From assembly GCA_045659745.1 (NCBI GenBank), contig JAZRCL010000057.1, positions 138 to 64,137 of the forward strand: a stretch of DNA of 64,000 nucleotides, read 5' to 3'. Source of the stretch: Eubacteriales bacterium. GTDB lineage: Bacteria > Bacillota > Clostridia > Oscillospirales > CAG-272. Below the pieces are notes generated by a model. The model saw nothing but the letters and a program-made list of their open reading frames with translations, made no database searches and had not been told where the DNA came from. This document shows, one piece after another, positions 8,744-64,000 of this stretch. Position 1 is the first letter of the stretch, and every line of letters begins with the position of its first letter. Both the position numbers and the translations under genes were made by a program.

Positions 8744-8773
8744 TTTCTGATTAGTTTAACAAATAAACAAAAA

Positions 8774-8806
8774 TCGGAGGATGCCTCGGCATCCTCCGAC
8801 TTTTTT
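8774..8806. terminator. Bidirectional intrinsic terminator between convergent genes
   Basis: tcggaggatgc(c)-loop-(g)gcatcctccga stem flanked by an A run and TTTTTT. Confidence 0.8.
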
Positions 8807-8812
8807 ATTAAG

Positions 8813-9631
8813 TTAAGAGTTAAGCTCTGTGGGAGCCTCCGTGTGAGCCTCCGTGGGCTTGGTAGATACGGGATATTCCTTGTATCCGTGAGTTCTTATG
8901 TATTCGAGCATTATTTTGTAGCCGTCTGCGTTTGGTGAGCCGCCGTCCTTGTTTGCATACTTCTTGGGGAGATTGCCCGATGAGTCCTTAAGGGCTTCTG
9001 CGGTGTTGATAAAGCGGATATTCAACTCCTGTGCGAGCTCGCATAACCACTTGTTGCAGGTGTCTATTTTTTCATTTGATATCTCACTGTTTCTGTGCTG
9101 ATATTTTGCTGACACTGGAAGTATGGATTGGATTATTATCTTTGTGCCAGGAGAGTTTTCCTTGATCGTGTCTATAAGCTTTTTGTAGTATTCGCAAAAG
9201 GCATTTTTGTCGCAATAGGGAACACCGTTCTCAAGCCCCAAGGTTATTACAAGATACCTTGGCTTTTTTGTTTTAAGCGATTGTGCGAGGAGCATCTCCT
9301 CATCTGTTTCGGGGAGAATTATTGTTGCTTTGTCGATATTGTAATCGAGCTTCAGCGTTCCGTCCTTGCCGGTCCAGACCTGATTTGAGTCAACTCCGTT
9401 TTCCAAAACTCCGCTGCTAACCATATTCTGACTTGTAAAGTCGCCGAGGAATATCAGATTATTTATATAATTCTGACCGTAATCGGGAGTGGATTTCAGA
9501 GTCGCCTCGCTCTCTGAGATATTAAAATCCTTGTCCTTTTTTATCAAGGTGGCGAGACACACCGCAGCGATTATCGCCAGACACAGCGCGGCAAGCAGGG
9601 AGATTATAATTACTTTCGTTGTTTTTTTCAT
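8813..9631 (-). CDS. Membrane-anchored SGNH/GDSL-family hydrolase
   Basis: N-terminal TM helix, block I-like LIFLGDFTS and later ITLGLENG blocks. Size and layout fit SGNH esterases. Identification from motifs only. Confidence 0.6.
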   Translation of the reverse strand: MKKTTKVIIISLLAALCLAIIAAVCLATLIKKDKDFNISESEATLKSTPDYGQNYINNLIFLGDFTSQNMVSSGVLENGVDSNQVWTGKDGTLKLDYNIDKATIILPETDEEMLLAQSLKTKKPRYLVITLGLENGVPYCDKNAFCEYYKKLIDTIKENSPGTKIIIQSILPVSAKYQHRNSEISNEKIDTCNKWLCELAQELNIRFINTAEALKDSSGNLPKKYANKDGGSPNADGYKIMLEYIRTHGYKEYPVSTKPTEAHTEAPTELNS

Positions 9632-9643
9632 TTTATTTCAATC

Positions 9644-10117
9644 CTATTTGTCGTCTGAAAAAAGACTTTTGTATTCAGTCTGCGTCTCGGGCTGCTTTTT
9701 GGATTTTTTAGTGCTTCCGGAATTTTTTGTGTTTTGTGACTTGGCGTTGACTTTTTTCTCACTCTTGCGATTGATAATAAAGGATTTGATAAGACAAGCT
9801 ATCCCATATAATACGGCGAAAATTGCCGTTGAAATAACCGAGAAGGTAAATCCCTTGTGGTAGGGGAGAATGACGCAGAAGAAAAATCCACCCACGTAGC
9901 ATGCCGCGTGGCATACTGCTGCGGGAATCTTGTTCATTAAGTTGCTTTCCTTTATCGCTGTTCCCGTGGACATTATAAAAGCGAACAAAAGCAGAAACAA
10001 AAATTTTCCCGGGTCAAGTCCCGTGTTATTATCGCCAAATAACTGTGCAAATAACAAAAAGACGCCGCTTATTGCGGTATAGTAAACCGCTCCGAGATTT
10101 ATGATTCTTTTAAGCAT
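9644..10117 (-). CDS. Hypothetical integral membrane protein with Lys-rich C-terminal tail
   Basis: Four predicted hydrophobic helices followed by a KSEKKVNAKSQNTKNSGSTKKSKKQ tail. Tightly coupled to the downstream hydrolase gene. Confidence 0.6.
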   Translation of the reverse strand: MLKRIINLGAVYYTAISGVFLLFAQLFGDNNTGLDPGKFLFLLLFAFIMSTGTAIKESNLMNKIPAAVCHAACYVGGFFFCVILPYHKGFTFSVISTAIFAVLYGIACLIKSFIINRKSEKKVNAKSQNTKNSGSTKKSKKQPETQTEYKSLFSDDK

Positions 10118-51587: not shown

Positions 51588-51632
<45 letters not shown>

Positions 51633-51698: not shown

Positions 51699-51727
51699 TT
51701 GACAAATTAACCGTTCTGTGCTATAAT
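51699..51727 (+). promoter_or_regulatory. Sigma-A type promoter TTGACA-17-TATAAT for the pilin operon
   Basis: TTGACA 51699-51704, TATAAT 51722-51727, about 66 nt upstream of the pilin ATG. Confidence 0.65.
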
Positions 51728-51793: not shown

Positions 51794-52141
51794 ATGAAGA
51801 AACTTAACAAGAAGGGCTTTACAATCGTAGAGCTTGTAATCGTTATCGCAGTTATCGCAATCCTCGCAGCAGTAATGATTCCTACATTTAGTGGCATAAT
51901 TGAAAAGGCAAATGATTCTGCTCGTCTCCAGCTTGCATCTGCAGCATACAAGGAAGCATATGCGATTGCTATTAGCGATGATGGTGTAATTGACAATACG
52001 GATACAGATATCGCTGCAGGTGATTTCGAATTTGACTTTACATCCGAGGACGATGCTACCGTAACCACATCTAATACTAAGTTTACCAACTATACAGTAA
52101 AAGTAGAAAATGGTGAACTTAAGATAGAAAAGAAGAAATAA
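51794..52141 (+). CDS. Type IV pilin (probable major pilin), prepilin-type N-terminal cleavage/methylation domain
   Basis: MKKLNKKG|FTIVELVIVIAVIAILAAVMIPTF: short basic leader, Gly at -1, Phe at +1, Glu at +5, 20-aa hydrophobic helix. 115 aa. First gene of the operon, followed by a terminator-like hairpin. Confidence 0.85.
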   Translation: MKKLNKKGFTIVELVIVIAVIAILAAVMIPTFSGIIEKANDSARLQLASAAYKEAYAIAISDDGVIDNTDTDIAAGDFEFDFTSEDDATVTTSNTKFTNYTVKVENGELKIEKKK

Positions 52142-52178
52142 TTAAATATTACTAATAATTAATTTTATTAAGACGCAA

Positions 52179-52224
52179 GCACTCTGCACTCCTTGCGGGT
52201 GTAGAGTGCTTTGGTCGTTTTTTT
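52179..52224 (+). terminator. Intrinsic terminator/attenuator between the major pilin and downstream pilus genes
   Basis: gcactctgcac-(9)-gtgtagagtgc (11 bp with one G-U) followed by tttggtcgTTTTTTT. Confidence 0.7.
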
Positions 52225-52242: not shown

Positions 52243-52731
52243 ATGGGCAGAAAACACAGAATTACTAATGCGTCAAAGCAAAATATTGCTAAACGCGGCA
52301 AGGGTGGATTCACACTTGCCGAGCTTTGTATTGTTTTGGCAATCGTTGTGATCTCATCTGCTATGATAGTTTCGTTCGCGACGTCTATGAAGCAGTTTGC
52401 CACCTCAAGCCAAGAAGAATACGACTTTTTAGAGGACTGCGGCGCCGTCAGGGACGGGCTGTGCCGATGGATTGCTGAAAAGGACGCTCCCAATGCGGAT
52501 TTCTCGGATATAGTCGGAAAAGATTTTGCCGTGTCAGGCGGAACTCTTGATCTTGGCAATAATACGAAATTTGAAAACCTGGACACGATCGGAAAGATTA
52601 CCTTTGAGATTAACGAGGACAAAAATCTGATCAAATGCGAAATTACCCGCGTTGGCTCCGACAGTGCCGGCAAGAGCCTTGTTTTCGCTCTGCGCTGCGC
52701 AAATTCAGACGGAGGTGGCGCGAATGAATAA
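52243..52731 (+). CDS. Pilin-like protein (minor pilin) with long leader peptide
   Basis: ...AKRGKGG|FTLAELCIVLAIVVISSAMIV: Gly at -1, Phe at +1, Glu at +5. The leader is about 22 aa. Confidence 0.75.
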   Translation: MGRKHRITNASKQNIAKRGKGGFTLAELCIVLAIVVISSAMIVSFATSMKQFATSSQEEYDFLEDCGAVRDGLCRWIAEKDAPNADFSDIVGKDFAVSGGTLDLGNNTKFENLDTIGKITFEINEDKNLIKCEITRVGSDSAGKSLVFALRCANSDGGGANE

Positions 52732-53125
52732 AACAAAAAGAAATAGCGGCTTTTCCATAATGGAAACGGTTATCGCTCTGGCAATAATCGTTATCGTAAC
52801 AGTTGCGGCGCTCTCCGTGGTTATGGCATCCATCTCCGCAAGAGTCAAGCAAGCCAATTACAGCGAGGCGCAGGACTTCGCGCACAACATCCTTGAGTGC
52901 TTTAAGGCGGCAGATGATACGGCTAAGTTTGAAGATTACGTGAAATTTGCCGAGGGCGTGGAATTGAGCCAATACGCCGAAAATGATGGTTATAATTATG
53001 ACGCGGAAAATAAATTTTCTGCAAAGATAATGTACTATAACAATTTTAACGAGATATTTATCAGTATTGAAGATACAAAGGGTGACGAAATAATTTCGTT
53101 CTCATACGTAAAGGGGGCGAAATAA
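52724..53125 (+). CDS. Pilin-like protein (minor pilin)
   Basis: MNKTKRNSG|FSIMETVIALAIIVIVTVAAL. ATG 52724 overlaps the upstream stop region and has a GGAGG Shine-Dalgarno. Confidence 0.75.
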   Translation: MNKTKRNSGFSIMETVIALAIIVIVTVAALSVVMASISARVKQANYSEAQDFAHNILECFKAADDTAKFEDYVKFAEGVELSQYAENDGYNYDAENKFSAKIMYYNNFNEIFISIEDTKGDEIISFSYVKGAK

Positions 53126-53484
53126 TGAAGATACTTAAAAGCAAAAAGGGAATAGCGCTTGAAAATACGCTGCTCTTTATGATGATCATATTCTCGCTCT
53201 GCTTTTTGATCGCGTCGTTTGCCCTGATAGGTCATTATCAAGGTAAAATAGAGAATATCAAGATAACTCAAAGGATCGAGCTTGATCAGATTGGAGAGGA
53301 ATATCTTGCAAGTGTCAAGGACCCTTCAGTAGCTTTTGACAACGAAAGCTACGGCGGCTACACTTGTGATGTAAATGCAGAGAACAGGACTCTGACTGTC
53401 AAGAATGGAGAAACAGTAGTACTCTATGTAAAAGCGAACAGCTACGGCGACCCGATAATCTGGCGTTATTCACAGCCGGAATAA
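53125..53484 (+). CDS. Atypical pilin-like / ComGG-like small membrane-anchored protein
   Basis: MKILKSKKG|IALENTLLFMMIIFSLCFLIASFALI: hydrophobic helix after KKG, but Glu falls at +4 rather than +5. Confidence 0.45.
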   Translation: MKILKSKKGIALENTLLFMMIIFSLCFLIASFALIGHYQGKIENIKITQRIELDQIGEEYLASVKDPSVAFDNESYGGYTCDVNAENRTLTVKNGETVVLYVKANSYGDPIIWRYSQPE

Positions 53485-53513: not shown

Positions 53514-54746
53514 ATGGCAAAATCTAACTATATGACAACAATAGCGATCGATACCAATCGTTCTGCCATTCATTTTTACTCAATGGTTGGCAACGATAAG
53601 AACTCGATCACTCATAATATAAAAAGCTATGCGGGTGTAAAGCTCGACGAGAACTTTTTTGAAAGGTTCAAGGATGCCGTAAAAGACTTTGCGGCAAACA
53701 CTCCGTCCGAGTCTATACGTAAGGTCACGGTAATTCTGCCCGACTCCGCAGTGCTTACCGATACTATAAAGATACCCACGGTCAAGGGCTCGGCACAGAC
53801 TCAGAAGATGCTTGACACAACTCTTGGCGGTCTTTACCGCAACTATAAGGATCTGCATATCATCGCTCAGATGGCGGATCAGAACAAGCAGTATTCCACT
53901 ATCGGTATAGCGGCAGTGCAGAACAGCATAGTTTCGTCCGTCTATTCGGCTTGCTCGGAGAATAAGCTTTTGGTTGACACGCTTTCCTTTGCATCAGCTT
54001 CGTCTGTTGCGGGAGCTATGTCATTCAACCCCAAGCTCAAGAATGCGTCGTACGTATTCTTGGATATAAAGGATATCTATTCAAGATTTGTATTCGTGGT
54101 GGACGGCAAGGTTATGGGATTCTATACGCTTCCGTTCGGACTTGAATTTTTGAGAAAGCCCCGAGTTGTGAGAGAGGATATTTTGTTTGACCACTCATAT
54201 GGCGAGCTTGTAGTCCTTAACGCAAGGGAAAAGGCAAAGTCCAAAAAGCTTACCGTTATGGCGTTTGGTGAGGCATCCTCCAGATCTTCTCAGGAGGAAT
54301 ACTCTGCAGACGACGAGATAGACGCGGATGAAGAGCTTGTATCCGAGGAGGCAGTTGTTGAGGAGGTCACAGTTAATAACAACGGACAAACCCAAAAGCT
54401 GTTCGTGAGAAAGGGACCCCGCAATCTTCCCAAGTTTATGCTTCGTGAGATTCCCGAAACACAAGAGGGAATTGCTTATGAAAACTTCCGAGTTTTCGTT
54501 AAGTGGGCGTTGACTCTTATACATAGCAACGAAAAGATAACCGAGCTTGGCAAGCCCCAGTTCGTGTGTGTAAATCTTCCCGCGGATCTTTCATACGTTA
54601 TAGATATGACAAATCAGGAGTCGGGCGAGAACGGAATTACGTTTAACCGCCTGTCTGCTTCGAGTGATAATCGCATCATCTCGGAAAATCTCGAATTATA
54701 CGGCGGCTTGTTCCCGAATCAGATAAACTCGGCGAATAAGCTTTGA
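53514..54746 (+). CDS. Possible PilM-like pilus assembly protein with acidic insertion
   Basis: Starts TTIAIDTNRSAIHFY (actin-like phosphate-1-like strand), and its operon position is typical of PilM. Contains an acidic stretch SQEEYSADDEIDADEELVSEEAVVEE. Weak assignment. Confidence 0.4.
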   Translation: MAKSNYMTTIAIDTNRSAIHFYSMVGNDKNSITHNIKSYAGVKLDENFFERFKDAVKDFAANTPSESIRKVTVILPDSAVLTDTIKIPTVKGSAQTQKMLDTTLGGLYRNYKDLHIIAQMADQNKQYSTIGIAAVQNSIVSSVYSACSENKLLVDTLSFASASSVAGAMSFNPKLKNASYVFLDIKDIYSRFVFVVDGKVMGFYTLPFGLEFLRKPRVVREDILFDHSYGELVVLNAREKAKSKKLTVMAFGEASSRSSQEEYSADDEIDADEELVSEEAVVEEVTVNNNGQTQKLFVRKGPRNLPKFMLREIPETQEGIAYENFRVFVKWALTLIHSNEKITELGKPQFVCVNLPADLSYVIDMTNQESGENGITFNRLSASSDNRIISENLELYGGLFPNQINSANKL

Positions 54747-54756
54747 GGATTGTAGT

Positions 54757-55545
54757 ATGGATGAATTTTACCTTGCAGTAGCTTATATTCTTGCGGCAAT
54801 TATAGGCTTGTGCGTGGGCAGCTTTCTGAACGTAGTTATATACCGTCTGCCCAACAAAATGAGTCTTGTAAAGCCCAATTCGCATTGTCCCGCTTGCAAA
54901 TATGAGCTTCGCTGGTATGACAATATCCCCGTGCTTTCTTATTTGATTCTTGGCGGTAAATGCAGAAAATGTAAGGCGCGTATATCCTTCAGATATGCGG
55001 CGGTCGAGCTTGCAAACGCGGCTCTGTGGGTGCTTTGCGTTTTGTTCTTCTGGCAAAAGAGCATAGTGCTCGCTTGTATTTACGCGCTTGTATGTTCAAT
55101 TTTTATATGTATATTCTTTATTGATCTTGAGCATAAGATCATATTTGACCGTTTTCAGATAATGCTGCTCGTGCTTTCGTTAGCAAGCATATTCTTTGAT
55201 AAGGACTACGGTTGGCTGTCGCACGTGATTGGTGGCGTTGCGGGCTTTGCAGTCTTTTTCCTTGTCGCTTGGGTATTTGAAAAGGTATCCAAGAGGGAGG
55301 GGCTTGGCGGCGGCGACGTTAAGCTTGCCTGTGTTGCAGGACTTTTGCTTGGATGGGAGCGTCTGCTTCTGTCGCTTATTATAGCAACTGTTCCCGCCGC
55401 GATAATAATGCTTATCGCGTCAAGAGGCAAGGAGGGGGAGGACAGAGAATTTCCCTTTGCGCCGTTCTTGATCTGCGGTTTTAGTGTTGCAATGTTTTTC
55501 GGAACACAGATACTGAATTGGTATCTGTCGCTTCTTGGATTTTGA
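54757..55545 (+). CDS. pilD: Prepilin peptidase (A24 family)
   Basis: GSFLNVVIYRLP, CPACKYEL...CRKCKA zinc-binding pairs, GLGGGDVKL catalytic Asp motif, second Asp-containing FAPFL region. Confidence 0.92.
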   Translation: MDEFYLAVAYILAAIIGLCVGSFLNVVIYRLPNKMSLVKPNSHCPACKYELRWYDNIPVLSYLILGGKCRKCKARISFRYAAVELANAALWVLCVLFFWQKSIVLACIYALVCSIFICIFFIDLEHKIIFDRFQIMLLVLSLASIFFDKDYGWLSHVIGGVAGFAVFFLVAWVFEKVSKREGLGGGDVKLACVAGLLLGWERLLLSLIIATVPAAIIMLIASRGKEGEDREFPFAPFLICGFSVAMFFGTQILNWYLSLLGF

Positions 55546-55566: not shown

Positions 55567-56778
55567 ATGCCTACATATAAATACGTAGCGGTAAATTTGC
55601 AAAAGAAAAAATACAAGGGTATTTTTATCGCTGAGGATGAAAAAGACCTCGCGGTGCAGCTCACAAAACAAAATTTATATTTGGTTTCCGCCTCTGTATA
55701 CAAGGGAGGCACTCCGTCTGCATTTTTCACGCTTGGCACAGGAAAGGTCAAGCTGAGTGAGCTTACCACGTTTTGCAGACAGTTCGCTATTATGATATCC
55801 ACGGGTATTACGCTGCTTGACTGTATCGATAGCCTGAAGCGTCAGCCCTATTCCGCATATTTTAAGTCTGTGCTTCAGGTAGTCAGTGAGGACATCAAGG
55901 GCGGAGCTATGCTGTCCGAGGCGTTTGATAAGCACAAAAAGGTATTTCCCGATTTTTTCTGCAGCATGGTGCACGTCGGAGAAGCCAGTGGAAAGCTTGA
56001 TAAGGTTTTCTTGTCTCTCGCGGATTATTACGAGTCGGACGCGGCAATCAAGAGAAAGGTTAGATCCGCGCTCGCATATCCGTCTATGCTCGCGCTTATG
56101 ACGGTTGCCATCGTAGTTTTGATGCTTGCATTCGTCGTTCCCACATTCCGCGAATCGCTCTCGCAGCTCGACGTTGAGATCACGGGCTTGACTAAAGCGG
56201 TTTACGACATTTCGGATTTCATTTTGAATTATTGGCGAATCATCGTTATCGGAATAATTCTCATCGGCGGCGCGATTTTCCTCTTCACCCGAACAGCAAA
56301 GGGAAGACGGGTAATGGACGTATTAAAGATCAAAACTCCTATTATAGGACGCATCCAGATCAACCTTATAACAGCCCGCTTTGCGCGAGCATTCAGTATT
56401 TTGCTTTCGAGCGGAATGGATCTCGCTACTGCGCTTGATACAACGTCCATTATTCTTGGCAACAGCTACGTTAAGGAACGCTTTGACGAAGCAGCAGACG
56501 ACGTCCGTGAGGGCATCACGCTGACAAACGCGTTTCAAAAGCAAAATCTGTTTCCGCAAATGCTCTTGCAGATGCTTGCGGTAGGAGAACAGACGGCTTC
56601 CTTGGAAGAGGTGCTTGTCCGTTCGTGCGCATTCTTTGACGATCAGGTCGAATCCTCTCTCAATTCGCTGACCTCCAAGATTCAGCCCGCAATGCTTTTG
56701 ATCATGGGTCTTGTCGTGGGAACGCTGTTTATGGCGGTCTACTCGCCTATGCTTGCCATTATGAGTACCCTTGCTTGA
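55567..56778 (+). CDS. pilC: Type IV pilus platform protein (GspF/PilC family)
   Basis: Two T2SSF repeats (LTTFCRQFAIMISTGITLLDCI ; ARFARAFSILLSSGMDLATAL). Three TM segments. 403 aa. Confidence 0.92.
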   Translation: MPTYKYVAVNLQKKKYKGIFIAEDEKDLAVQLTKQNLYLVSASVYKGGTPSAFFTLGTGKVKLSELTTFCRQFAIMISTGITLLDCIDSLKRQPYSAYFKSVLQVVSEDIKGGAMLSEAFDKHKKVFPDFFCSMVHVGEASGKLDKVFLSLADYYESDAAIKRKVRSALAYPSMLALMTVAIVVLMLAFVVPTFRESLSQLDVEITGLTKAVYDISDFILNYWRIIVIGIILIGGAIFLFTRTAKGRRVMDVLKIKTPIIGRIQINLITARFARAFSILLSSGMDLATALDTTSIILGNSYVKERFDEAADDVREGITLTNAFQKQNLFPQMLLQMLAVGEQTASLEEVLVRSCAFFDDQVESSLNSLTSKIQPAMLLIMGLVVGTLFMAVYSPMLAIMSTLA

Positions 56779-56794: not shown

Positions 56795-58483
56795 ATGAAT
56801 ATAAATAGAGACTTACTACAGTTTTATATTTACAAAAAAATAATAAAGAAAAAGCAAGCAGAAAAGATTCTTGAGGATTGCGAACGACTTAAGGTTTCGG
56901 TCCGCGACTATATGCTTACTAAGGAGTATGCGACGGAGGTCAGGGAATTGCCCGTTTTGGGAGGATATTATTGCCTTCCTCACGTGGAAATAGACATGCT
57001 TGATATCGACAAGTCACTTTTCGAGCTGTTCAGCTTCGAATTTATGAAGCGCTACAAAGTCATTCCCGTGAGCATGAGCCCCGACGGCACGCTTCTTATC
57101 GCAACGGGTAATCCGCTTGACTGCTCGGCTATGTCGGCGATTTCCTCGCAGATCGTATGTCCTATGGACTACGTTCTCGTCCCACCCGGACAGATAGACC
57201 GCTATATTGACTCAATAGCGGTGGTAATGTCCACGTCCGCGGCACTCGACGACCTTAATACCGAGGGCGAGGTTGAGATGTTCTCGACCAAGAAGGCCCT
57301 CGCAGAAGAGAATATCGCCGAGAATGACGTCGTCAACAACCCGTCGGTTCGTCTGGTTGACTCAATTATCCGAGAAGCCGTACCGTACCGCGCGAGTGAT
57401 ATACATATCGAGCCCTTTGAGAAGGTCGTTAAGGTGCGCTACCGTATAGACGGCGACCTTCAGGAAAGAGCAGAGTTCCCGATAAACTCTTATTCCGCGA
57501 TTTGTGCGCGAATTAAAATAATGGCGGGACTTGATATTGCCGAGCGCAGAATACCTCAGGACGGACGAATTGATATGATCATCGGCGGCAAGGAGTTTGA
57601 CTTCCGTGTTTCCTCGCTTCCCACGATGTTCGGAGAAAAATTCGTTATCCGAGTACTCGATAAAACGTCCTTCCGCTTCACACGTGACGACCTTGGCTTT
57701 ACCGAGGACGAAAACGTGTATATAAACAAAATGCTCTCCAAGCCCCACGGAATAATCCTTCTGACAGGACCCACGGGATGCGGAAAGTCCACGACCTTGT
57801 ACTCCTTCTTAAAGGAGGTTAACACCTCAGCGGTGAATATCGTTACCGTTGAAGACCCCGTTGAGTATGTTATGCAGGGCATAAATCAGACGCAGGTAAA
57901 CGCAAAGGCTAATATGACCTTTGCGACCGCGCTTCGTTCCATACTCCGTCAGGACCCCGATATCATAATGATCGGTGAGATGCGAGACGAGGAGACCGCG
58001 GAGATAGCCGTAAGAGCGGCTATTACTGGACACCTTGTGTTCAGTACGCTGCATACCAACGATGCCACGGGCGCGATCACGCGTCTTGAGGATATGGGTA
58101 TCGCAGATTACCTCGTTGCAGACGCGCTTGTGGGCGTTATTGCCCAGCGTCTTGTTAAAAGACTTTGCCCCGAGTGCAGAAGAAGAAGTAAAACCACCCC
58201 CAGCGAGATGCGGATGCTCGGCATAGACGAGCCCATCAGCATTTATCGCCCGCAGGGATGTCAGTTCTGCAACCATACGGGATATAAGGGCAGAATAGCA
58301 GTGCACGAGATTATGTATATGAATGAAAATATGCGTAACGCCGTCGTGCGCGAAAAGAATCTTGAGGTGCTTCGCGACCTCGCAAGACAAAACGGAATGG
58401 TCACTCTTTGGAGCTCCTGCCGTAACCTTGTAATAAACGGCGTGACGAGTATCCAACAGCTTATGACCTTGAATATGGAGTGA
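56795..58483 (+). CDS. pilB: Type IV pilus assembly ATPase (GspE/PilB family)
   Basis: Walker A GPTGCGKST, Asp box, Walker B IIMIGEMRD, His box, tetracysteine CPEC...CQFC motif. N-terminal GSPII_E-like domain. Confidence 0.93.
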   Translation: MNINRDLLQFYIYKKIIKKKQAEKILEDCERLKVSVRDYMLTKEYATEVRELPVLGGYYCLPHVEIDMLDIDKSLFELFSFEFMKRYKVIPVSMSPDGTLLIATGNPLDCSAMSAISSQIVCPMDYVLVPPGQIDRYIDSIAVVMSTSAALDDLNTEGEVEMFSTKKALAEENIAENDVVNNPSVRLVDSIIREAVPYRASDIHIEPFEKVVKVRYRIDGDLQERAEFPINSYSAICARIKIMAGLDIAERRIPQDGRIDMIIGGKEFDFRVSSLPTMFGEKFVIRVLDKTSFRFTRDDLGFTEDENVYINKMLSKPHGIILLTGPTGCGKSTTLYSFLKEVNTSAVNIVTVEDPVEYVMQGINQTQVNAKANMTFATALRSILRQDPDIIMIGEMRDEETAEIAVRAAITGHLVFSTLHTNDATGAITRLEDMGIADYLVADALVGVIAQRLVKRLCPECRRRSKTTPSEMRMLGIDEPISIYRPQGCQFCNHTGYKGRIAVHEIMYMNENMRNAVVREKNLEVLRDLARQNGMVTLWSSCRNLVINGVTSIQQLMTLNME

Positions 58484-58525: not shown

Positions 58526-61500
58526 ATGAAAAAGAGAAACATTAAAGCCTTTACTGTCGTAGAGCTTGTAATCGTTATCGCAGTTATTGCTATACTTGCG
58601 GCGGTTATGATCCCTACCTTCAGCGGCTTGATAAGAAAGGCGAATAAATCCGCGGACGAAGCGGAGATAACCTCGCTCAATACACAGCTTGCTATCTGGG
58701 ATGGCGATATTACGACCGAAGCGGATCTTTATGCGGTAATCGCAGAAACCTACGGCGAAGAAACCGCTAAAACCTTTGCGCCAAGAAGCGCAAAGCACGG
58801 TCTGCATTATTGGTATGACGTAGCTAAAAATCGTGTGATCCTTAGCAAATATGAGGATCTTGACGCGACCCCCGTTAATACTGTAAATGCAAATTCTGGT
58901 GTGACAATGCTTTCCAACGTAACACCACTTGCAGCAGGAGAAGAGAAGGCTCCTTTTGCACCTAACAGCCTTCGTACCATCACCAAGGGCGAAAGACAGT
59001 ATTTCTTTATAGATAAGAGCGGTAGTGCGGTCGCTGAATTCTTTGACTTGATCGATACAATCAGCGAAAACAATTATAGTGACATTGAGGCGGCACTTGA
59101 AAGCCTTAAAGGTGAGATTGTTAATGCAATCAAAACAAGACTTGCGTCCGTCGCAATCCTTAATGGCAACGGCTTGTTTACAAAGGTTGAGAAGCCTTCC
59201 GCGATCTATATTCCTGTGAATAAGGATACCGAGAATGTCATCGCCTTGGGAACAGCAATCTATAAAGACGGTGATCTTGTTGATCGTAACGCGGTAGATT
59301 TTTCCGAGATAAAGCGCATTGATTTGCCTAACGGATATAAGGTTCTTACTGCAGGTCTGACAGGCTTTAGAGGTGCCGATGCAACTCCTATGTTGGAGAA
59401 CACGACCGAACTCCACGTTAACGCCAAGGAAAGCGACCTCGGAACAATTTTCGAGGCATATTCTACTGATTGCGTTATCGTTCTTCCTAATGGTTCGAGA
59501 TACATTATAGAGGGAACGAGTATCTATAAGCTTCCCAAGGGTGATACACCTATCACTGATGATCTTAAAGCCGATAGTGTTCCCGATGTTAAGATTGAAT
59601 ACACGGACGGCAATGAAAATGTTGGAGCAGATACCGGTTATTTCTATAACGGCACACTCTATATCGCATACGACATAGAGAATGGCGCACAGCTTTCCTT
59701 GGCTGACGGCGTTGCTTCAAGTATGGTTAATTGGACAGTAAGTGATAATGCTCCTATTAGCATTGATGAAACTGGTAAGATTACAGTGGTAGGCGCCCCC
59801 GATCCTCTTAATGTTACGGCTACTGTAACTGCCACGTCTAAATATAACAACGAAAAGACGGATAGCATAAATGTAGTGCTTGTATTCCCGACAACTGTAG
59901 ATTGGTCTTTAGAAACAATTGGAGATAAAACAGCAGATTCTAATGTTATCAATGAACCGATTAAACTTAGCATTAGCGATGTCGATAAGCTTTCATTTGA
60001 AATCAAGGCAACTGGAACTGTTGGATATACATATAACAGTTATGTCAAAATGGCTGGCGCCGAGAGTGTTCAGTTTATTTTGGGCGACGGAAACCTGCTT
60101 ACAAAGGATGGCGAAAAATTGGTAGCTCATCCAGGAAATATTACGGAAGAGAATAACACCCAGACACTTAACGTCATCTATAAAGTTGGCGAGCAGACTT
60201 ATATCACAGCAACTTATGATATCATAGTTTCTGACGATACAAATTGCCCTATTAGCGTAAATGCTATTACTAATTCTCTCAATATGGGAGATAAATATCT
60301 GTTCCGCGTTGGTAACAGCAATGCATTCAACTTGAACAAATTGTTTAACGGCACGACAGACAAGAAAGTTAAAATTGAAATATATGATGTAGCGCTGACA
60401 GATAATGACGGAGAAGAAAATCTCATTGCCACTTCTGGAAATTTCTATGCAAAGATTAACGACATTGCGGCCAACACTAAAGAATGCTCAGATGGCAATT
60501 GGAATGAAATTAAAGTGCAGTTTTTTGGTACCGGCGTAGCAATTATTCGTTTTACTGCAAACGGCAAGACTGAGGAATTGCATATTGAAGTTGTTGACGG
60601 TTACAACATTACCTCGGCAGGGGAGTTGAAAACTAATAAGAACAATATTTTGTTGAATGATATTGATATTAGTGATTACAGTAATAACTATATTTCTTTC
60701 TCGGGTAATACCACCAACCATGTAGTTTTGTACGGTAATGGTTTTAAGTTTAATATTGAGGCAGGAAGAAATAATAACTTTGGCGTAATTACTCTTACAA
60801 ACGCTGATATTGACAACACAAGAATTATCGGATCAATATATACTGAGTACGGCGACTCGTGGGATAACGGGAACACCCCATACTATGCATCAGCAGTATA
60901 TGTTACTGCGAATAGCCGAATTTCCAATTCCTACATTTTTGGCTGTCGTGCAAATGTCAGAGTAGATAATTTAATTTCTAAGGGAACTCTCGAACTTGTT
61001 GATACCGTTTTGGATTGCGGAAGATTTGCAAACCTCGATGTTGCCGGTAATGCTGTATTGGAAGGTGTAACAACCGTAAATGAACCGCGTCCGGATAATA
61101 AAAATGTAGCGGGTTTTAGTGTTGTGATTCCCCAAGAAGGTGGATCTTCAACAATAGAAATTAAAGGTAAGGGCTTAACACAATACAATTGGATGACCAG
61201 CAGCGATAGCTCTAAGCTTCCTAATTTTACTGGTAAAAATGTATTATTCAATGCTATGTTTGATACAGAGTATGCTGCATTCCAGCACAAACATGGCACT
61301 GAAACCTATGTCAATATGGGTATTATCTCTATGTCTAGTGAGACAGACGGAAGTAATATTAAATACGAATCTCAATATTATACTGAAAAGACTGCAACGC
61401 TTACTGGTTTTTCGGGCTATGTTGTATCTCTTGGAGAAAAGTACAGCTTGTCCTCAAATGATTTGACATACCGCGAGGACACTTATTCTTGGGATCCTTC

Positions 61501-63052
61501 GAAGCAGAGCGCATCGCTACCTACATTTACATGGACAGCCGGATATGAGGATTATAAGCATGAAATTTCTTTTGATAGCGGAAGTTCTGTAACATTTGAT
61601 CCTAAAGTATTGATTGCTGAAAAGCATAAGCAGGGTTTGGAAGTTACAATAAAGCTCGAAAATGATTCCTCTTACACTGGTGGTGGTAAAACTTTCACCG
61701 AGGGAGGCACTTATACATTTGAATATACTGTAACAGACCCGTATGTTTATAATTTAGATGGAACGCTTGCAGAAGCGAAAATTTACACCTATAAGCTTAC
61801 CGTTGAAGTAGAGGTTAGAGAGACAACCATCAAAGAACCCGAATTTACCTTTAACGGAGTAAAAGCAACTATCGTTGAGGGTACAGATGGAAAGTTCTAT
61901 GTTACGCTTCCTGCTGGAACAGCTAATACAAAAACAACTACTGCTGGTGGAAAGACTATCACATACCCGATTGCTGAGGGAAAAACTCAGGCTGTTTCAC
62001 TTGGTAATAATAAGTATTGGTATTTCCCTTATTATTCGATCGTAACTATTACAAATTACACAGATGCTTTCGGAAATAACACAATCTTTAATAGTTCCAC
62101 CACAAGCAAGGGGCCTGTTCCCGAGTCTTATTCAGGCGATTTGTATTGGGGTAAGAGCGACGCGGAAGGTAACTACTCAGATTACGGTGGCTATGGTATG
62201 AAACGTAATACTAGCAACGACAGTAAGTATCAAGTCGAAAGAGAAACTACTGTTCAATTCTCCTTTACTGCCGGAAATAACACAACATACTACTACTACA
62301 TTCATTATGCTTTCGATACTACAGATGATGCTCCTAGCTCTGGTGGAGGCTCCGACAATTGTATTGCCGCAGGCACTATGATTACTCTGGCTGATGGCTC
62401 TAAGAAGGCTGTCGAGGATCTTCGTAAGGGTGATATGGTAATGTCCTTCGACCACCTTACTGGCGAGATCACATACAAGGATGTAATCATCGTTGCAAGA
62501 ACGTATTCAGAAAGCTACTACAAGAACACGTTCGTGTTCGATGACGGAACAGAGCTTGTAACGATCAATGAGCACGGTATCTACGACCTTGACCTCAACA
62601 AGTACGTAAATATCGATCACATTAACTATACCGATTATCTTGGACATAGTTTTGTATCTGTAGATGCCGAGGGTAATCTTGGTGTGAAAAAGCTTGTTGA
62701 CGTTAAGACCGTTTGCGGCGGTGGTTATAAGTACGACATCGTAACTAATGGAACTCTTAATTACGTTGCAGAGGATACTCTTTCTGTAACACACGTTCTT
62801 GTTGATGTTATCAACTCCTTCGACTTTGGCTCAGATCTCAAGTACGATGCAGAAAAGATGCTGTCTGATATTGAGAAGTACGGTCTGTATGACTATGCAG
62901 AATGGGAAGAGTACTGCGATATTTCTGTATTTGATCAGTACAATATTCCCGTTATGAAGGTGGGTATTTCTAAGGGACTTTACACCAAGGAATACATTAT
63001 CGGCCTTATTAACACGTATGTTCTTAATGACAGCGCTCAGATTATCGACTAA
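58526..63052 (+). CDS. Giant (1,508 aa) modular pilin-like adhesin with C-terminal Hint autoprocessing domain
   Basis: MKKRNIKA|FTVVELVIVIAVIAILAAVMIPTF prepilin signal and helix, near-identical to the major pilin. Ig-like segments (aa about 384-453, about 1020-1097). Beta-helix-like repeats (aa about 700-860). Hint domain from Cys1279 (CIAAGTMITLADGSKKAVEDLRKGDMV...). AGGAGG Shine-Dalgarno. Terminator follows. Confidence 0.85.
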   Translation: MKKRNIKAFTVVELVIVIAVIAILAAVMIPTFSGLIRKANKSADEAEITSLNTQLAIWDGDITTEADLYAVIAETYGEETAKTFAPRSAKHGLHYWYDVAKNRVILSKYEDLDATPVNTVNANSGVTMLSNVTPLAAGEEKAPFAPNSLRTITKGERQYFFIDKSGSAVAEFFDLIDTISENNYSDIEAALESLKGEIVNAIKTRLASVAILNGNGLFTKVEKPSAIYIPVNKDTENVIALGTAIYKDGDLVDRNAVDFSEIKRIDLPNGYKVLTAGLTGFRGADATPMLENTTELHVNAKESDLGTIFEAYSTDCVIVLPNGSRYIIEGTSIYKLPKGDTPITDDLKADSVPDVKIEYTDGNENVGADTGYFYNGTLYIAYDIENGAQLSLADGVASSMVNWTVSDNAPISIDETGKITVVGAPDPLNVTATVTATSKYNNEKTDSINVVLVFPTTVDWSLETIGDKTADSNVINEPIKLSISDVDKLSFEIKATGTVGYTYNSYVKMAGAESVQFILGDGNLLTKDGEKLVAHPGNITEENNTQTLNVIYKVGEQTYITATYDIIVSDDTNCPISVNAITNSLNMGDKYLFRVGNSNAFNLNKLFNGTTDKKVKIEIYDVALTDNDGEENLIATSGNFYAKINDIAANTKECSDGNWNEIKVQFFGTGVAIIRFTANGKTEELHIEVVDGYNITSAGELKTNKNNILLNDIDISDYSNNYISFSGNTTNHVVLYGNGFKFNIEAGRNNNFGVITLTNADIDNTRIIGSIYTEYGDSWDNGNTPYYASAVYVTANSRISNSYIFGCRANVRVDNLISKGTLELVDTVLDCGRFANLDVAGNAVLEGVTTVNEPRPDNKNVAGFSVVIPQEGGSSTIEIKGKGLTQYNWMTSSDSSKLPNFTGKNVLFNAMFDTEYAAFQHKHGTETYVNMGIISMSSETDGSNIKYESQYYTEKTATLTGFSGYVVSLGEKYSLSSNDLTYREDTYSWDPSKQSASLPTFTWTAGYEDYKHEISFDSGSSVTFDPKVLIAEKHKQGLEVTIKLENDSSYTGGGKTFTEGGTYTFEYTVTDPYVYNLDGTLAEAKIYTYKLTVEVEVRETTIKEPEFTFNGVKATIVEGTDGKFYVTLPAGTANTKTTTAGGKTITYPIAEGKTQAVSLGNNKYWYFPYYSIVTITNYTDAFGNNTIFNSSTTSKGPVPESYSGDLYWGKSDAEGNYSDYGGYGMKRNTSNDSKYQVERETTVQFSFTAGNNTTYYYYIHYAFDTTDDAPSSGGGSDNCIAAGTMITLADGSKKAVEDLRKGDMVMSFDHLTGEITYKDVIIVARTYSESYYKNTFVFDDGTELVTINEHGIYDLDLNKYVNIDHINYTDYLGHSFVSVDAEGNLGVKKLVDVKTVCGGGYKYDIVTNGTLNYVAEDTLSVTHVLVDVINSFDFGSDLKYDAEKMLSDIEKYGLYDYAEWEEYCDISVFDQYNIPVMKVGISKGLYTKEYIIGLINTYVLNDSAQIID

Positions 63053-63117: not shown

Positions 63118-63999
63118 ATGGCTATAAAATATACATCTACAAAACCCGAAAAAGAAAAGCCCCAAAAGGCACCTAAAGCACCCAAAACCGAAAAGCCTGC
63201 GAAAAAAGACAATTTGGTTAAGGTGAAGATGAGCAAGCCCACAAAGGCTGCTAAAGCGCCTAAGGCACAGAAACCCCAAAAGGTAAAGAATAGTACGCCC
63301 GCGAAAGCGCCTAAGGCAGGAGCGTCTGTCACGTTTAAAGGTGGTAAAACTAAAAAGACGTCAAATACCGTGAATGGTGATGCGCCCAAAAAAGCATTTG
63401 CTCCTAAAATTGCTATAGTGATAGGCGTTATCTTGGTGCTTGCTATCGTAATGGTTGCTGTATTTTTGATTATGCCTGCAGTTAAGCAAAATGGCGAGGC
63501 GATAAAAGAAATAAGTGTTTCGCAATTGCCTGACAAGACTGTTTATTTGACCGGTGAAGAAGCAAATTACACTGGCTTGCGTATTCAGGTGACGAAAAAA
63601 AATGGTGAAACCTATACCGTTCGCGCTCATGAGTGCGAAATTACCGGATTTGATAGCGCCAAGGAAGGATATATACGTATTCTTGTAAAATATGAGGGCT
63701 TTGAGGTTGGGTTTAACCTCAAGGTTCAGGAGCCACCACGCCCTACTCCATCACTTAAGAGCATTAGTTTGAAAACTTTACCTAAAACAGAATATAAGGT
63801 AGGAGAGAGGCTCGATACCATAGGTGGTGTTATTCTTTGCGAATATAATGATGGTTCACAACACACTGTTTCTCTTGTAAATGGCCATGTCTCTGGCTTC
63901 AAGAATGTCGATGGCCCGGGAACATATATGTTGACCGTAAAGTACAAGGAAAACGGCGTTTTGGCAACCTGCACCTACGAAATCACGGTAACAGAATAA
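63118..63999 (+). CDS. Single-pass membrane protein: Lys/Pro/Ala-rich cytoplasmic N-terminus and extracellular Ig-like (Big_3-like) repeats
   Basis: KPEKEKPQKAPKAPKTEKPAKK... (aa 8-95), TM IAIVIGVILVLAIVMVAVFLIMP, then two repeats of the LP.KT.Y..GE....GL.I......G pattern. The TAA stop at 63997-63999 is inside the window. Confidence 0.7.
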   Translation: MAIKYTSTKPEKEKPQKAPKAPKTEKPAKKDNLVKVKMSKPTKAAKAPKAQKPQKVKNSTPAKAPKAGASVTFKGGKTKKTSNTVNGDAPKKAFAPKIAIVIGVILVLAIVMVAVFLIMPAVKQNGEAIKEISVSQLPDKTVYLTGEEANYTGLRIQVTKKNGETYTVRAHECEITGFDSAKEGYIRILVKYEGFEVGFNLKVQEPPRPTPSLKSISLKTLPKTEYKVGERLDTIGGVILCEYNDGSQHTVSLVNGHVSGFKNVDGPGTYMLTVKYKENGVLATCTYEITVTE

Positions 64000-64000
64000 C

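Follow-up and report, generated by a model that had tools for sequence, protein, structure and literature searches.

A predicted giant modular pilin with a C-terminal Hint domain in a type IV pilus operon of an uncultured gut Clostridia bacterium

The pilus operon and its giant pilin gene

We analyzed a 64-kb window (the whole 64,000-nucleotide stretch, taken from contig JAZRCL010000057.1) from an uncultured gut Clostridia bacterium, in which an open reading frame (ORF) at 58526..63052 encodes a 1,508-amino acid (aa) protein with a type IV pilin N-terminus, referred to here as the giant pilin. The ORF, which like all features described below lies on the forward strand unless stated otherwise, starts with ATG, is uninterrupted and is preceded by an AGGAGG Shine-Dalgarno sequence 7 nt 5' of the start codon. 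As would be expected of a type IV pilin, it is encoded beside a prepilin peptidase (54757..55545; A24_N_bact and Peptidase_A24, Pfam E 1.9e-36 and 1.5e-18), a PilC/GspF platform protein (55567..56778) and a PilB extension ATPase (56795..58483; MshEN and T2SSE), the latter two found in Pfam and NCBIfam scans.

A homologue search of NCBI, ENA, JGI and Logan assemblies yielded about 28 full-length relatives of 1,310-2,018 aa (28-40% identity over 99% of the length), annotated only as "hypothetical protein" or "type II secretion system protein"; 20 full-length relatives (29-42% identity) made up the alignment in which conservation was assessed. The original prediction had named a sequencing frameshift or an assembly fusion of separate genes as one way in which it might fail. 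Since full-length relatives with the same module order occur in independent assemblies, we consider a fusion artefact to be ruled out, with a negligible residual chance, and the uninterrupted ORF and its strong ribosome-binding site also mark the gene as real.

The predicted N-terminus consists of the leader peptide MKKRNIKA (residues 1-8; 58526..58549), which ends in Ala, followed, after cleavage behind Ala8, by FTVVELVIVIAVIAILAAVMIPTFSG. The hydrophobic stretch after the cleavage site is FTVVELVIVIAVIAILAAVMIP, and it belongs to an alpha-1 helix (residues 9-57; 58550..58696) with Phe at +1 and Glu at +5. In the 20-relative alignment, A-1 (Ala8), F+1 (F9), T+2 and E+5 (E13) are invariant, and all 20 relatives match Pfam N_methyl at E<0.01. 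Compared to the 115-aa major pilin of the same operon (51794..52141; MKKLNKKG/FTIVE, with cleavage at the slash; Pfam N_methyl 30.4 bits, with matches to NCBIfam TIGR02532 and PpdD/GspG-like families), the giant shares 36 of its first 45 residues (31 of 35 in the mature part), while the first 135 nt of the two genes agree at 97 positions. Alpha-1 also matched that of geopilin and PilA in phmmer (E 4e-8), and, at one of the relatives' loci (L003), alpha-1 of the giant and that of its cognate major pilin co-vary (ATVLVP in each). AlphaFold2 (AF2) modeled a 47-residue helix in this region (residues 11-57) and, behind it, strands from which a pilin-type head sheet could be built; no pilin head was among the Foldseek results for the model of residues 1-760, which were dominated by immunoglobulin (Ig) arrays. 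Thus, the two features on which the original prediction had opened, a class III signal with a hydrophobic alpha-1 helix and the near-identity of that helix to the major pilin's, were both borne out, and the giant is very probably a pilin-type protein.

The position before the cleavage site sets the giants apart. Ala at -1 (KA, then FT.VE) occurs in about 60 of the 64 members of the wider giant-pilin superfamily, with or without the C-terminal Hint domain and tail described below, whereas the cognate major pilins at five loci have Gly at -1 throughout. Class III leaders end in Gly or Ala (review PMC10191384), so Ala at -1 lies within the accepted definition and is not an argument against processing.

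The order of the operon is largely kept among relatives. The giant gene sits after pilB in all five other pilus-operon loci inspected (L001, L002, L003/L004, L005 and L090); genes for the A24 peptidase, PilC and PilB precede it in the window, L001, L003 and L005, and those for PilC and PilB precede it in L002 and L090, where the A24 gene was not called. At L005, pilB and the giant pilin gene are separated by an inserted gene for an 885-aa GAP1-N2/GAP1-M protein (7300-9957). In the window, the 5' part of the operon also encodes two minor pilins recognized by family matches and by a class III motif scan, one at 52243..52731 (…KGG/FTLAE) and one at 52724..53125 (MNKTKRNSG/FSIME), the latter with a likely ATG start inside a listed TTG ORF (52652-53125). 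These are followed by a gene for a small protein with a hydrophobic N-terminus (53125..53484; KKG/IALEN), which keeps its position in relatives, has no family match and is possibly a non-canonical minor pilin, and by a gene for a 410-aa protein of an unannotated family (53514..54746; no Pfam or NCBIfam match), which occupies the same position in L001, L002, L003, L005 and L090 and is presumed to be a pilus assembly component. When all six frames of the window were scanned for the class III motif, four credible matches emerged, every one of them inside the pilus operon; a fifth match, on the minus strand, was discounted because it lacks a basic leader.

A promoter-like site (51699..51727) lies 5' of the major pilin gene and consists of TTGACA and TATAAT separated by 17 nt, with a TG, a perfect sigma-70-type site at 12 of 12 consensus positions; equivalents are found 5' of pilin genes in L002 and L090 as well. 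About 70 nt 5' of its -35 box is a run of 38 consecutive A (51589-51626), the sole homopolymer of at least 10 bases in the window, which is absent 5' of the pilin genes in L002, L003, L005 and L090. The tract may have arisen in assembly, act as curved DNA or in the manner of a UP element, or be prone to slippage. Between the major pilin gene and the minor pilin genes we found a terminator-like hairpin (52177..52211; stem of 15 bp, T-rich tail), which probably acts as an attenuator and determines how much pilin is made relative to the machinery. There is no terminator-like site directly before the giant gene.

Contrary to the original prediction, the giant gene is not the last of the operon. 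A co-directional gene with a Big_3 match (63118..64000, cut at the window end; Pfam E 4.7e-18) starts 65 nt past its stop codon, with no terminator-like site between them, and encodes a membrane protein whose N-terminus is rich in Lys and Pro, with a single transmembrane segment and two Ig-like domains of Big_3 type. A Big_3-type gene directly follows the giant gene in all eight other loci inspected (among them L001 11231-12115, L002 14452-15426, L003 14500-15363, L005 14815-15684, L006 14373-15398, L089 7653-8366 and L090 14028-14954). The giant and the Big_3 protein thus look like a conserved pair, in which the latter is a candidate partner, receptor or chaperone. Across loci, we saw no clear correlation between the similarity of the Big_3 proteins and that of the giant bodies, so we claim no interaction. 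In four of the eight loci (L003, 15368-16117; L004; L005, 15689-16450; L006, 15400-16431), the next gene after the Big_3 gene encodes a TMEM164-family membrane protein (PF14808); it is not found there in L001, L002 or L090, and the window stops short of this position.

The body, the Hint domain and the tail

We modeled the giant with AF2 on family alignments in two parts, residues 1-760 (predicted local distance difference test score (pLDDT) 85.5) and residues 701-1508 (pLDDT 84.5). Behind alpha-1 is an alpha/beta head and neck (residues 58-340; 58697..59545) with hairpins at 94-98/103-107 and 151-154/157-161 (pLDDT ~80-92) plus helices. A tandem array of Ig-like beta-sandwiches follows (residues ~341-700; 59546..60625), and the model of residues 1-760 matched the Sap S-layer protein, cadherins and tandem Ig arrays in Foldseek at E ~1e-8, in agreement with the Ig-like stretches originally proposed. 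Next comes a beta-solenoid-like region (residues ~701-960; 60626..61405) with short modeled strands and invariant LYGNGF, ISNSYI and QYNW motifs, and then further beta-sandwich modules (residues ~961-1270; 61406..62335), modeled by AF2 and with protocadherin-type Foldseek matches (ranks 43-49).

The periodic segment in the middle of the protein had been described as resembling a right-handed beta-helix, and this description was sustained only in part. AF2 placed 16 short strands with high pLDDT at residues ~720-890, and it is plausible from the model that this stretch forms a beta-solenoid. No match to a fold or family gave it a handedness: a profile of the region found only insignificant matches among PDB sequences, to left-handed beta-helices (E 0.07-0.3); no beta-helix was among the top 50 Foldseek matches of the C-terminal model in PDB and BFVD, where the Hint domain dominates the output; and a homologue search with the solenoid alignment returned one protein and was uninformative. 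Pfam, NCBIfam and PHROGs scans of the giant and 20 relatives left the 1,200-residue body and the tail described below unmatched, with no PbH1-type repeat in the body, and matched only the N-terminal pilin motif and, weakly, Hint models.

The Hint domain spans residues 1279-1421 (62360..62788). Foldseek with residues 701-1508 matched Tetrahymena BIL2, mini-inteins, the Hedgehog autoprocessing domain and the Clostridium thermocellum bacterial intein-like (BIL) domain, with template modeling (TM) scores of 0.72-0.84 and E values of 1e-9 to 1e-8 (down to 1.3e-9), and a family profile found BIL2 by sequence as well (E 1.3e-7). BIL2 is thus the best match of the domain by both sequence and fold, and the proposal of a Hint domain is confirmed at the level of fold, with subthreshold scores for Pfam Hint. 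Cys1279, the first residue of the fold, and the block-B His1350 (INEH) are invariant in the family alignment. The predicted autocleavage site is Asn1278/Cys1279 (AAT TGT; 62357..62362); the junction reads …SDN/CIAAGT in the window, with cleavage at the slash, and mostly PSG/CVT.DT in relatives, and the residue before the Cys varies across the family (N, G, S, T, V, K, L or I). The Hint domain and tail of the window represent a divergent subtype shared with a non-pilin protein at L007 and with a small pilin, P0142, both described below.

No C-terminal His-Asn is conserved near the end of the Hint domain in the family; the A-H-N of BIL2 aligns to an S-V-T consensus. Without a C-terminal Asn, the domain should be unable to cut its own C-terminus or to splice. 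Unlike an intein, it is followed by a dedicated tail, with no host protein resuming behind it. In the Hint superfamily, a thioester forms at the N-terminal Cys and is resolved by a nucleophile; Hedgehog and the cleavage-only BIL domains work in this way. From its sequence features, we infer that the Hint domain of the giant is an autoprocessing unit of Hedgehog/BIL type that cleaves at its N-terminus only, and we consider self-cleavage at Asn1278/Cys1279 to be likely.

The tail (residues 1422-1508 with the stop codon; 62789..63052) is the best-conserved segment of the giant after alpha-1. It carries a DIEKYGLY.YE.F motif, its invariant residues are D1448, Y1452, G1453, L1454, Y1457, F1469 and K1478, and AF2 predicted five helices between residues 1423 and 1498 (pLDDT mostly 84-93, with a drop in the final ~20 residues). 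These ~85 residues matched no Pfam model and no PDB sequence. With a pilin-type N-terminus, and with Ig arrays and a Hint domain confirmed by fold, the protein has the makeup of a modular pilin.

Exchange of the body and spread of the Hint domain and tail

The giant gene changes abruptly near its 5' end when close relatives are compared. The window is collinear with L001 (91% DNA identity) and L002 (80%) from just past the major pilin gene to position 58818, approximately codon 98 of the giant, where both alignments end at the same base. This common end implies a shared recombination boundary between a conserved docking segment and a replaceable body. Between the window and L001, aa identity was high for PilB (97.7%) and for residues 1-98 of the giant (94.9%) and low for the body (26.7%), Hint domain and tail (36.9%) and Big_3 protein (41%). 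The pattern was the same between L002 and L090 (PilB, 99.6%; residues 1-98, 81%; body, 30.7%; Hint domain and tail, 43.6%; Big_3 protein, 39.9%), so that the Big_3 protein is as variable as the giant body between close relatives (~40% identity). For L001 and L003, the body (68%) was more similar than residues 1-98 (53%), the Hint domain and tail (50%) and the Big_3 protein (48%), with PilB at 72%; the similarity of these bodies, set against that of the machinery, points to horizontal exchange. The major pilin behaves likewise, with a conserved N-terminus and a C-terminus that is unalignable between the window and its relatives. Taken together, these comparisons indicate that the giant body is a horizontally swapped hypervariable cassette; such variability would be the mark of an exposed surface structure diversified by recombination and supports surface display.

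Locus L001 carries a second giant pilin gene (P0023; 13332-16208), two genes after the first, whose 958-aa product has Ala at -1 and lacks the Hint domain and tail. Residues 1-329 of the window giant are 63% identical to P0023, and beyond residue 98 the window giant is closer to P0023 than to the first giant of L001; the window stops before the place where a counterpart of P0023 would lie. Giants without the Hint domain and tail are 958-1,254 aa long.

The Hint domain and tail extend far beyond pilins. In a search of 1.84 billion representative proteins, 1,975 scored E<=1e-30 against a profile of the two, about 2,000 clusters (50% identity) of large Firmicutes surface proteins, and 3,325 scored E<=1e-10. 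Among the best 150 representatives, the match spans both parts, with the tail adjoining the Hint domain, and lies nearly always at the extreme C-terminus of carriers of up to 3,072 aa (many shorter ones are fragments). Pilins account for about one-fifth to one-quarter of the top-scoring representatives. Of 122 further representatives (P0185-P0306), a class III signal is present in 22, with Ala at -1 in 14 of them and Gly in 8, and a SipW-type signal is present in 18. A scan of GTDB, with one genome per species, gave 224 loci with Hint domain and tail, of which the best 80 come only from uncultured gut and rumen Clostridia and some Bacilli; the carriers in these 80 begin with an ordinary signal peptide, a membrane anchor or a signal of SipW/TasA type, and class III signals and nearby pilus genes are absent from all 80. 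SipW/TasA-type starts (…TFAWFTDSVTS) were seen on Hint-tail proteins in P0185-P0306 and at L008, L024, L042, L046, L062, L079, L083 and L084. Apart from ordinary Sec substrates, then, the carriers of the Hint domain and tail include at least two kinds of exported proteins that form filaments.

Parts of the body are shared with the non-pilin carriers. Among the best 80 loci, the Hint domain and tail closest to those of the window (81% identity) belong to the 1,704-aa non-pilin protein at L007, which aligns to residues 585-1508 of the giant at 38.6%. Of the 80 non-pilin loci, 28 contain the solenoid-bearing segment (residues 585-960), and none contains the pilin head or the first Ig array. Thus, the giant is best described as a pilin head and Ig stalk grafted onto a widespread surface protein made up of solenoid, beta-sandwiches, Hint domain and tail. 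The same end is also found on small pilins, P0142 and P0168 (416-417 aa, Gly at -1). In P0142 (416 aa, G/FTLIEM; L087 10001-11251), the Hint domain and tail are 69% identical to those of the window, and its gene lies between pilin genes and a prepilin peptidase gene in a different PilB-PilT-PilC cluster.

Display, self-cleavage and competing readings

We propose that the window encodes a giant modular minor pilin that is both displayed and self-cleaving, and we put the probability of this overall account at roughly 60%. The class III signal would insert the giant into the membrane via Sec, the A24 prepilin peptidase of the operon would cut MKKRNIKA off after Ala8, and alpha-1 with its Glu5 would dock the giant into the same filament as the major pilin. 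Docking in the same filament would be possible because alpha-1 is nearly the same as that of the major pilin and Glu5 is kept. With ~1,200 extra residues, the tip, which is taken by the first subunit assembled, would be the only sterically easy position, and we judge display at the filament tip as an adhesin to be an even chance. The exported part (a small pilin head, Ig arrays, the solenoid-like module and more beta-sandwiches) would form the stalk and binding module typical of adhesins, and the Ig and solenoid body would give strain-specific binding; the near-complete difference between the bodies of close relatives is what would be expected of an exposed surface selected by ligands or immunity. 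After export, the Hint domain would perform an N-to-S acyl shift at Asn1278-Cys1279, and the thioester would be resolved, most simply by water, to free a mature pilin of ~1,270 residues and discard a 230-residue fragment of Hint domain and tail. The predicted mature product is about the size of the giants that lack the Hint domain (958-1,254 aa). The tail would probably serve the Hint step, in folding, oligomerization or the choice of nucleophile.

Several observations weigh against this account. At the N-terminus, the giant scores 19.9 bits against a Pfam N_methyl gathering cut-off of 21.2, while some of its relatives exceed the cut-off (P0042, 25.6 bits; P0023, 24.0), and NCBIfam TIGR02532 left the giant unmatched; Ala at -1 may help explain the failure of TIGR02532 and of the Pfam threshold to capture giant pilins, and the contrast of this invariant Ala with the Gly of major pilins could mean a different handling by the peptidase. 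At the C-terminus, the giant is below the gathering score of Pfam Hint (23.3 vs 29.7 bits), as it is for PT-HINT (19.1 vs 27.7 bits, E 0.0016) and Hint_2 (16.7 vs 28.4), and only 7 of 20 relatives match Pfam Hint at E<0.01. Moreover, the block-B Thr is not conserved, and position 1326 (62499-62501) is Thr in the window and His (in an I.NHG motif) in at least 90% of relatives; this position corresponds roughly to Asp46 of Hedgehog. The account also offers no explanation of how a module of ~140 kDa would cross the cell wall on a pilus tip. Lastly, pairs of giant and Big_3 genes are also found far from pilus operons (L006, L089), and the body of solenoid, Ig-like domains, Hint domain and tail occurs behind ordinary signal peptides or membrane anchors (e.g., at L007), so the body does not need a pilus.

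The last two observations are shared by the strongest alternative, which we nevertheless consider unlikely: that the giant is an anchored surface protein of pilin type and not a filament subunit. The class III helix would then serve as an anchor or as a handle for the machinery, which would push the body through the wall or leave it attached to the cell, much as in the archaeal "bindosome", whose sugar-binding proteins carry class III signals. This alternative gains from the many relatives in which the body, Hint domain and tail follow Sec signals or membrane anchors, from the pairs away from pilus operons, from the Ala at -1 that separates giants from true major pilins, and from the operon itself, in which Pfam and NCBIfam scans found no PilT and no recognizable PilMNO. 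Each of two of these points has an answer. Minor pilins are often encoded apart from the machinery genes, and Ala at -1 is accepted as a normal cleavage context (PMC10191384). A mere anchor would need neither the conserved Glu5 nor an alpha-1 that is nearly identical to, and partly co-varies with, that of the major pilin.

Somewhat less likely again is a transfer reaction like that of Hedgehog, in which the tail would act as an "adduct recognition region" that recruits a nucleophile for the Asn1278 thioester, and the mature C-terminus would end up covalently attached to a lipid, to a wall component or to an amine of a protein. The models for this reaction are the attachment of cholesterol by Hedgehog and the conjugation of ubiquitin-like (UBL) proteins by ciliate BIL domains. 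A Hint domain with Cys1 and block-B His and without a C-terminal Asn follows Hedgehog logic; the conserved 85-residue helical tail stands, in the best 150 representatives, where Hedgehog has its sterol-recognition region; and Tetrahymena BIL2, to which the domain is closest in sequence among solved structures, has a Hint domain that activates a UBL for conjugation. The TMEM164-type gene (PF14808) after the Big_3 gene in four of eight loci would also fit. Against transfer, Pfam and PDB-sequence profile searches revealed no homology of the tail to sterol- or adduct-recognition regions, the residue before the Cys is variable and many giants lack the Hint domain and tail; an anchored C-terminus would, in addition, conflict with display at the pilus tip. 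By analogy, the Hint domain and tail would be an unrecognized bacterial counterpart of the Hedgehog "Hog", transferring the C-termini of exported filament and surface proteins onto a defined nucleophile, a proposal that we rate equally low. If it were true, gut Firmicutes would have a sortase-independent means for the covalent attachment or cross-linking of surface proteins, including a 1,270-residue pilus adhesin, with pilins, SipW/TasA-type proteins and Sec-exported giants as its substrates.

A pilus-delivered polymorphic toxin, with an N-terminal trafficking module, a pre-toxin HINT and the downstream gene as immunity, would account for the weak PT-HINT match (E 0.0016) and for a constant N-terminus followed by a variable remainder and a variable downstream gene, but we rejected it as highly improbable because the region after the Hint domain is among the best-conserved parts and not polymorphic, the variable part is the Ig and solenoid body upstream of the Hint domain, the downstream gene is of a conserved membrane Ig-domain type unlike a small cytoplasmic immunity protein, and pilins are not mentioned in the parts consulted of the polymorphic-toxin survey PMC3482391.

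The displayed, self-cleaving pilin that we favor has partial counterparts among known systems. Like the giant, the PilB (vWA) and PilC (lectin) pilins of Streptococcus sanguinis combine a class III signal and pilin module with grafted non-pilin modules, are encoded in the pilus gene cluster of a monoderm and are expected to be exposed at the tip. The giant is 3-4 times their size and differs in having at least four module types instead of one, Ala instead of Gly at -1, a body without a Pfam model, and a Hint domain and tail at its end. PilY1/PilC, CofB and ComZ are likewise large modules at the tip (a location that is inferred for the giant) that give pili their binding specificity, but PilY1 is not a pilin, and CofB and ComZ are ~500 aa and have no autoprocessing domain. 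Hedgehog/Hog (1AT0, 6TYY) shares with the giant the Hint fold (TM ~0.73-0.74), the N-terminal Cys, the block-B His, the absence of a C-terminal Asn, a conserved C-terminal region after the Hint domain and a place at the C-terminus of an exported protein; the giant is bacterial, has Asn before the Cys where Hedgehog has Gly, and has a tail without detectable similarity to the sterol-recognition region. BIL and pre-toxin HINT domains (C. thermocellum BIL, 2LWY; Neisseria MafB; Tetrahymena BIL2, 6Y75) are, as predicted for the giant, Hint domains in secreted or surface proteins that cleave and do not splice; A-type BIL domains and BIL2 keep the C-terminal His-Asn that the giant family lacks, and PT-HINT precedes variable toxins whereas the Hint domain of the giant precedes a conserved tail.

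A different self-cleaving domain has been placed on pilins before. In phage tailspikes, an S74 domain follows the beta-helix and is discarded after folding. A survey of modular pilins described more than 1,200 proteins with 264 architectures (Raynaud et al. 2021; PMC8179133), and its Dataset S1 lists 29 proteins that join a pilin to an S74 auto-processing domain (IPR012902-IPR030392), an in silico precedent for the C-terminal maturation of pilins. In both cases the self-cleaving domain is C-terminal on a pilin, but S74 is a peptidase with a Ser-Lys dyad and the Hint domain of the giant works, by prediction, through a Cys thioester. In the part of Dataset S1 that was consulted, no Hint- or intein-related InterPro identifier appears among the architectures, and the most extreme multi-domain modular pilin cited in the paper has 860 residues, compared to 1,508 here, which upholds the earlier statement that known pilins are far smaller. 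The statement that no characterized example has this domain combination also stands: in searches of open-access papers and preprints we found nothing relevant on pilins with a Hint domain, giant pilins or Hint autoprocessing in Firmicutes. Since the N_methyl score of the giant is below threshold, it would be missed by threshold-based surveys of modular pilins, which thus under-count giant pilins.

The giant family is therefore an extreme and distinct variant within the established modular-pilin concept, which it extends to proteins of 1,300-2,000 residues with multi-module, strain-swappable bodies. Giant pilins may count among the chief factors that decide what uncultured gut and rumen Clostridia adhere to, and the sharp boundary between codons 1-98 and the body would be a natural design rule for the display of cargo on monoderm pili. 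With these proteins an autoprocessing Hint domain would enter pilus biology, and one would have to ask by what mechanism, and to what purpose, a pilin is processed at both of its termini. More broadly, the Hint domain and tail form a large cassette in Firmicutes surface proteins, for which we found no description and whose chemistry would be either release or covalent transfer.

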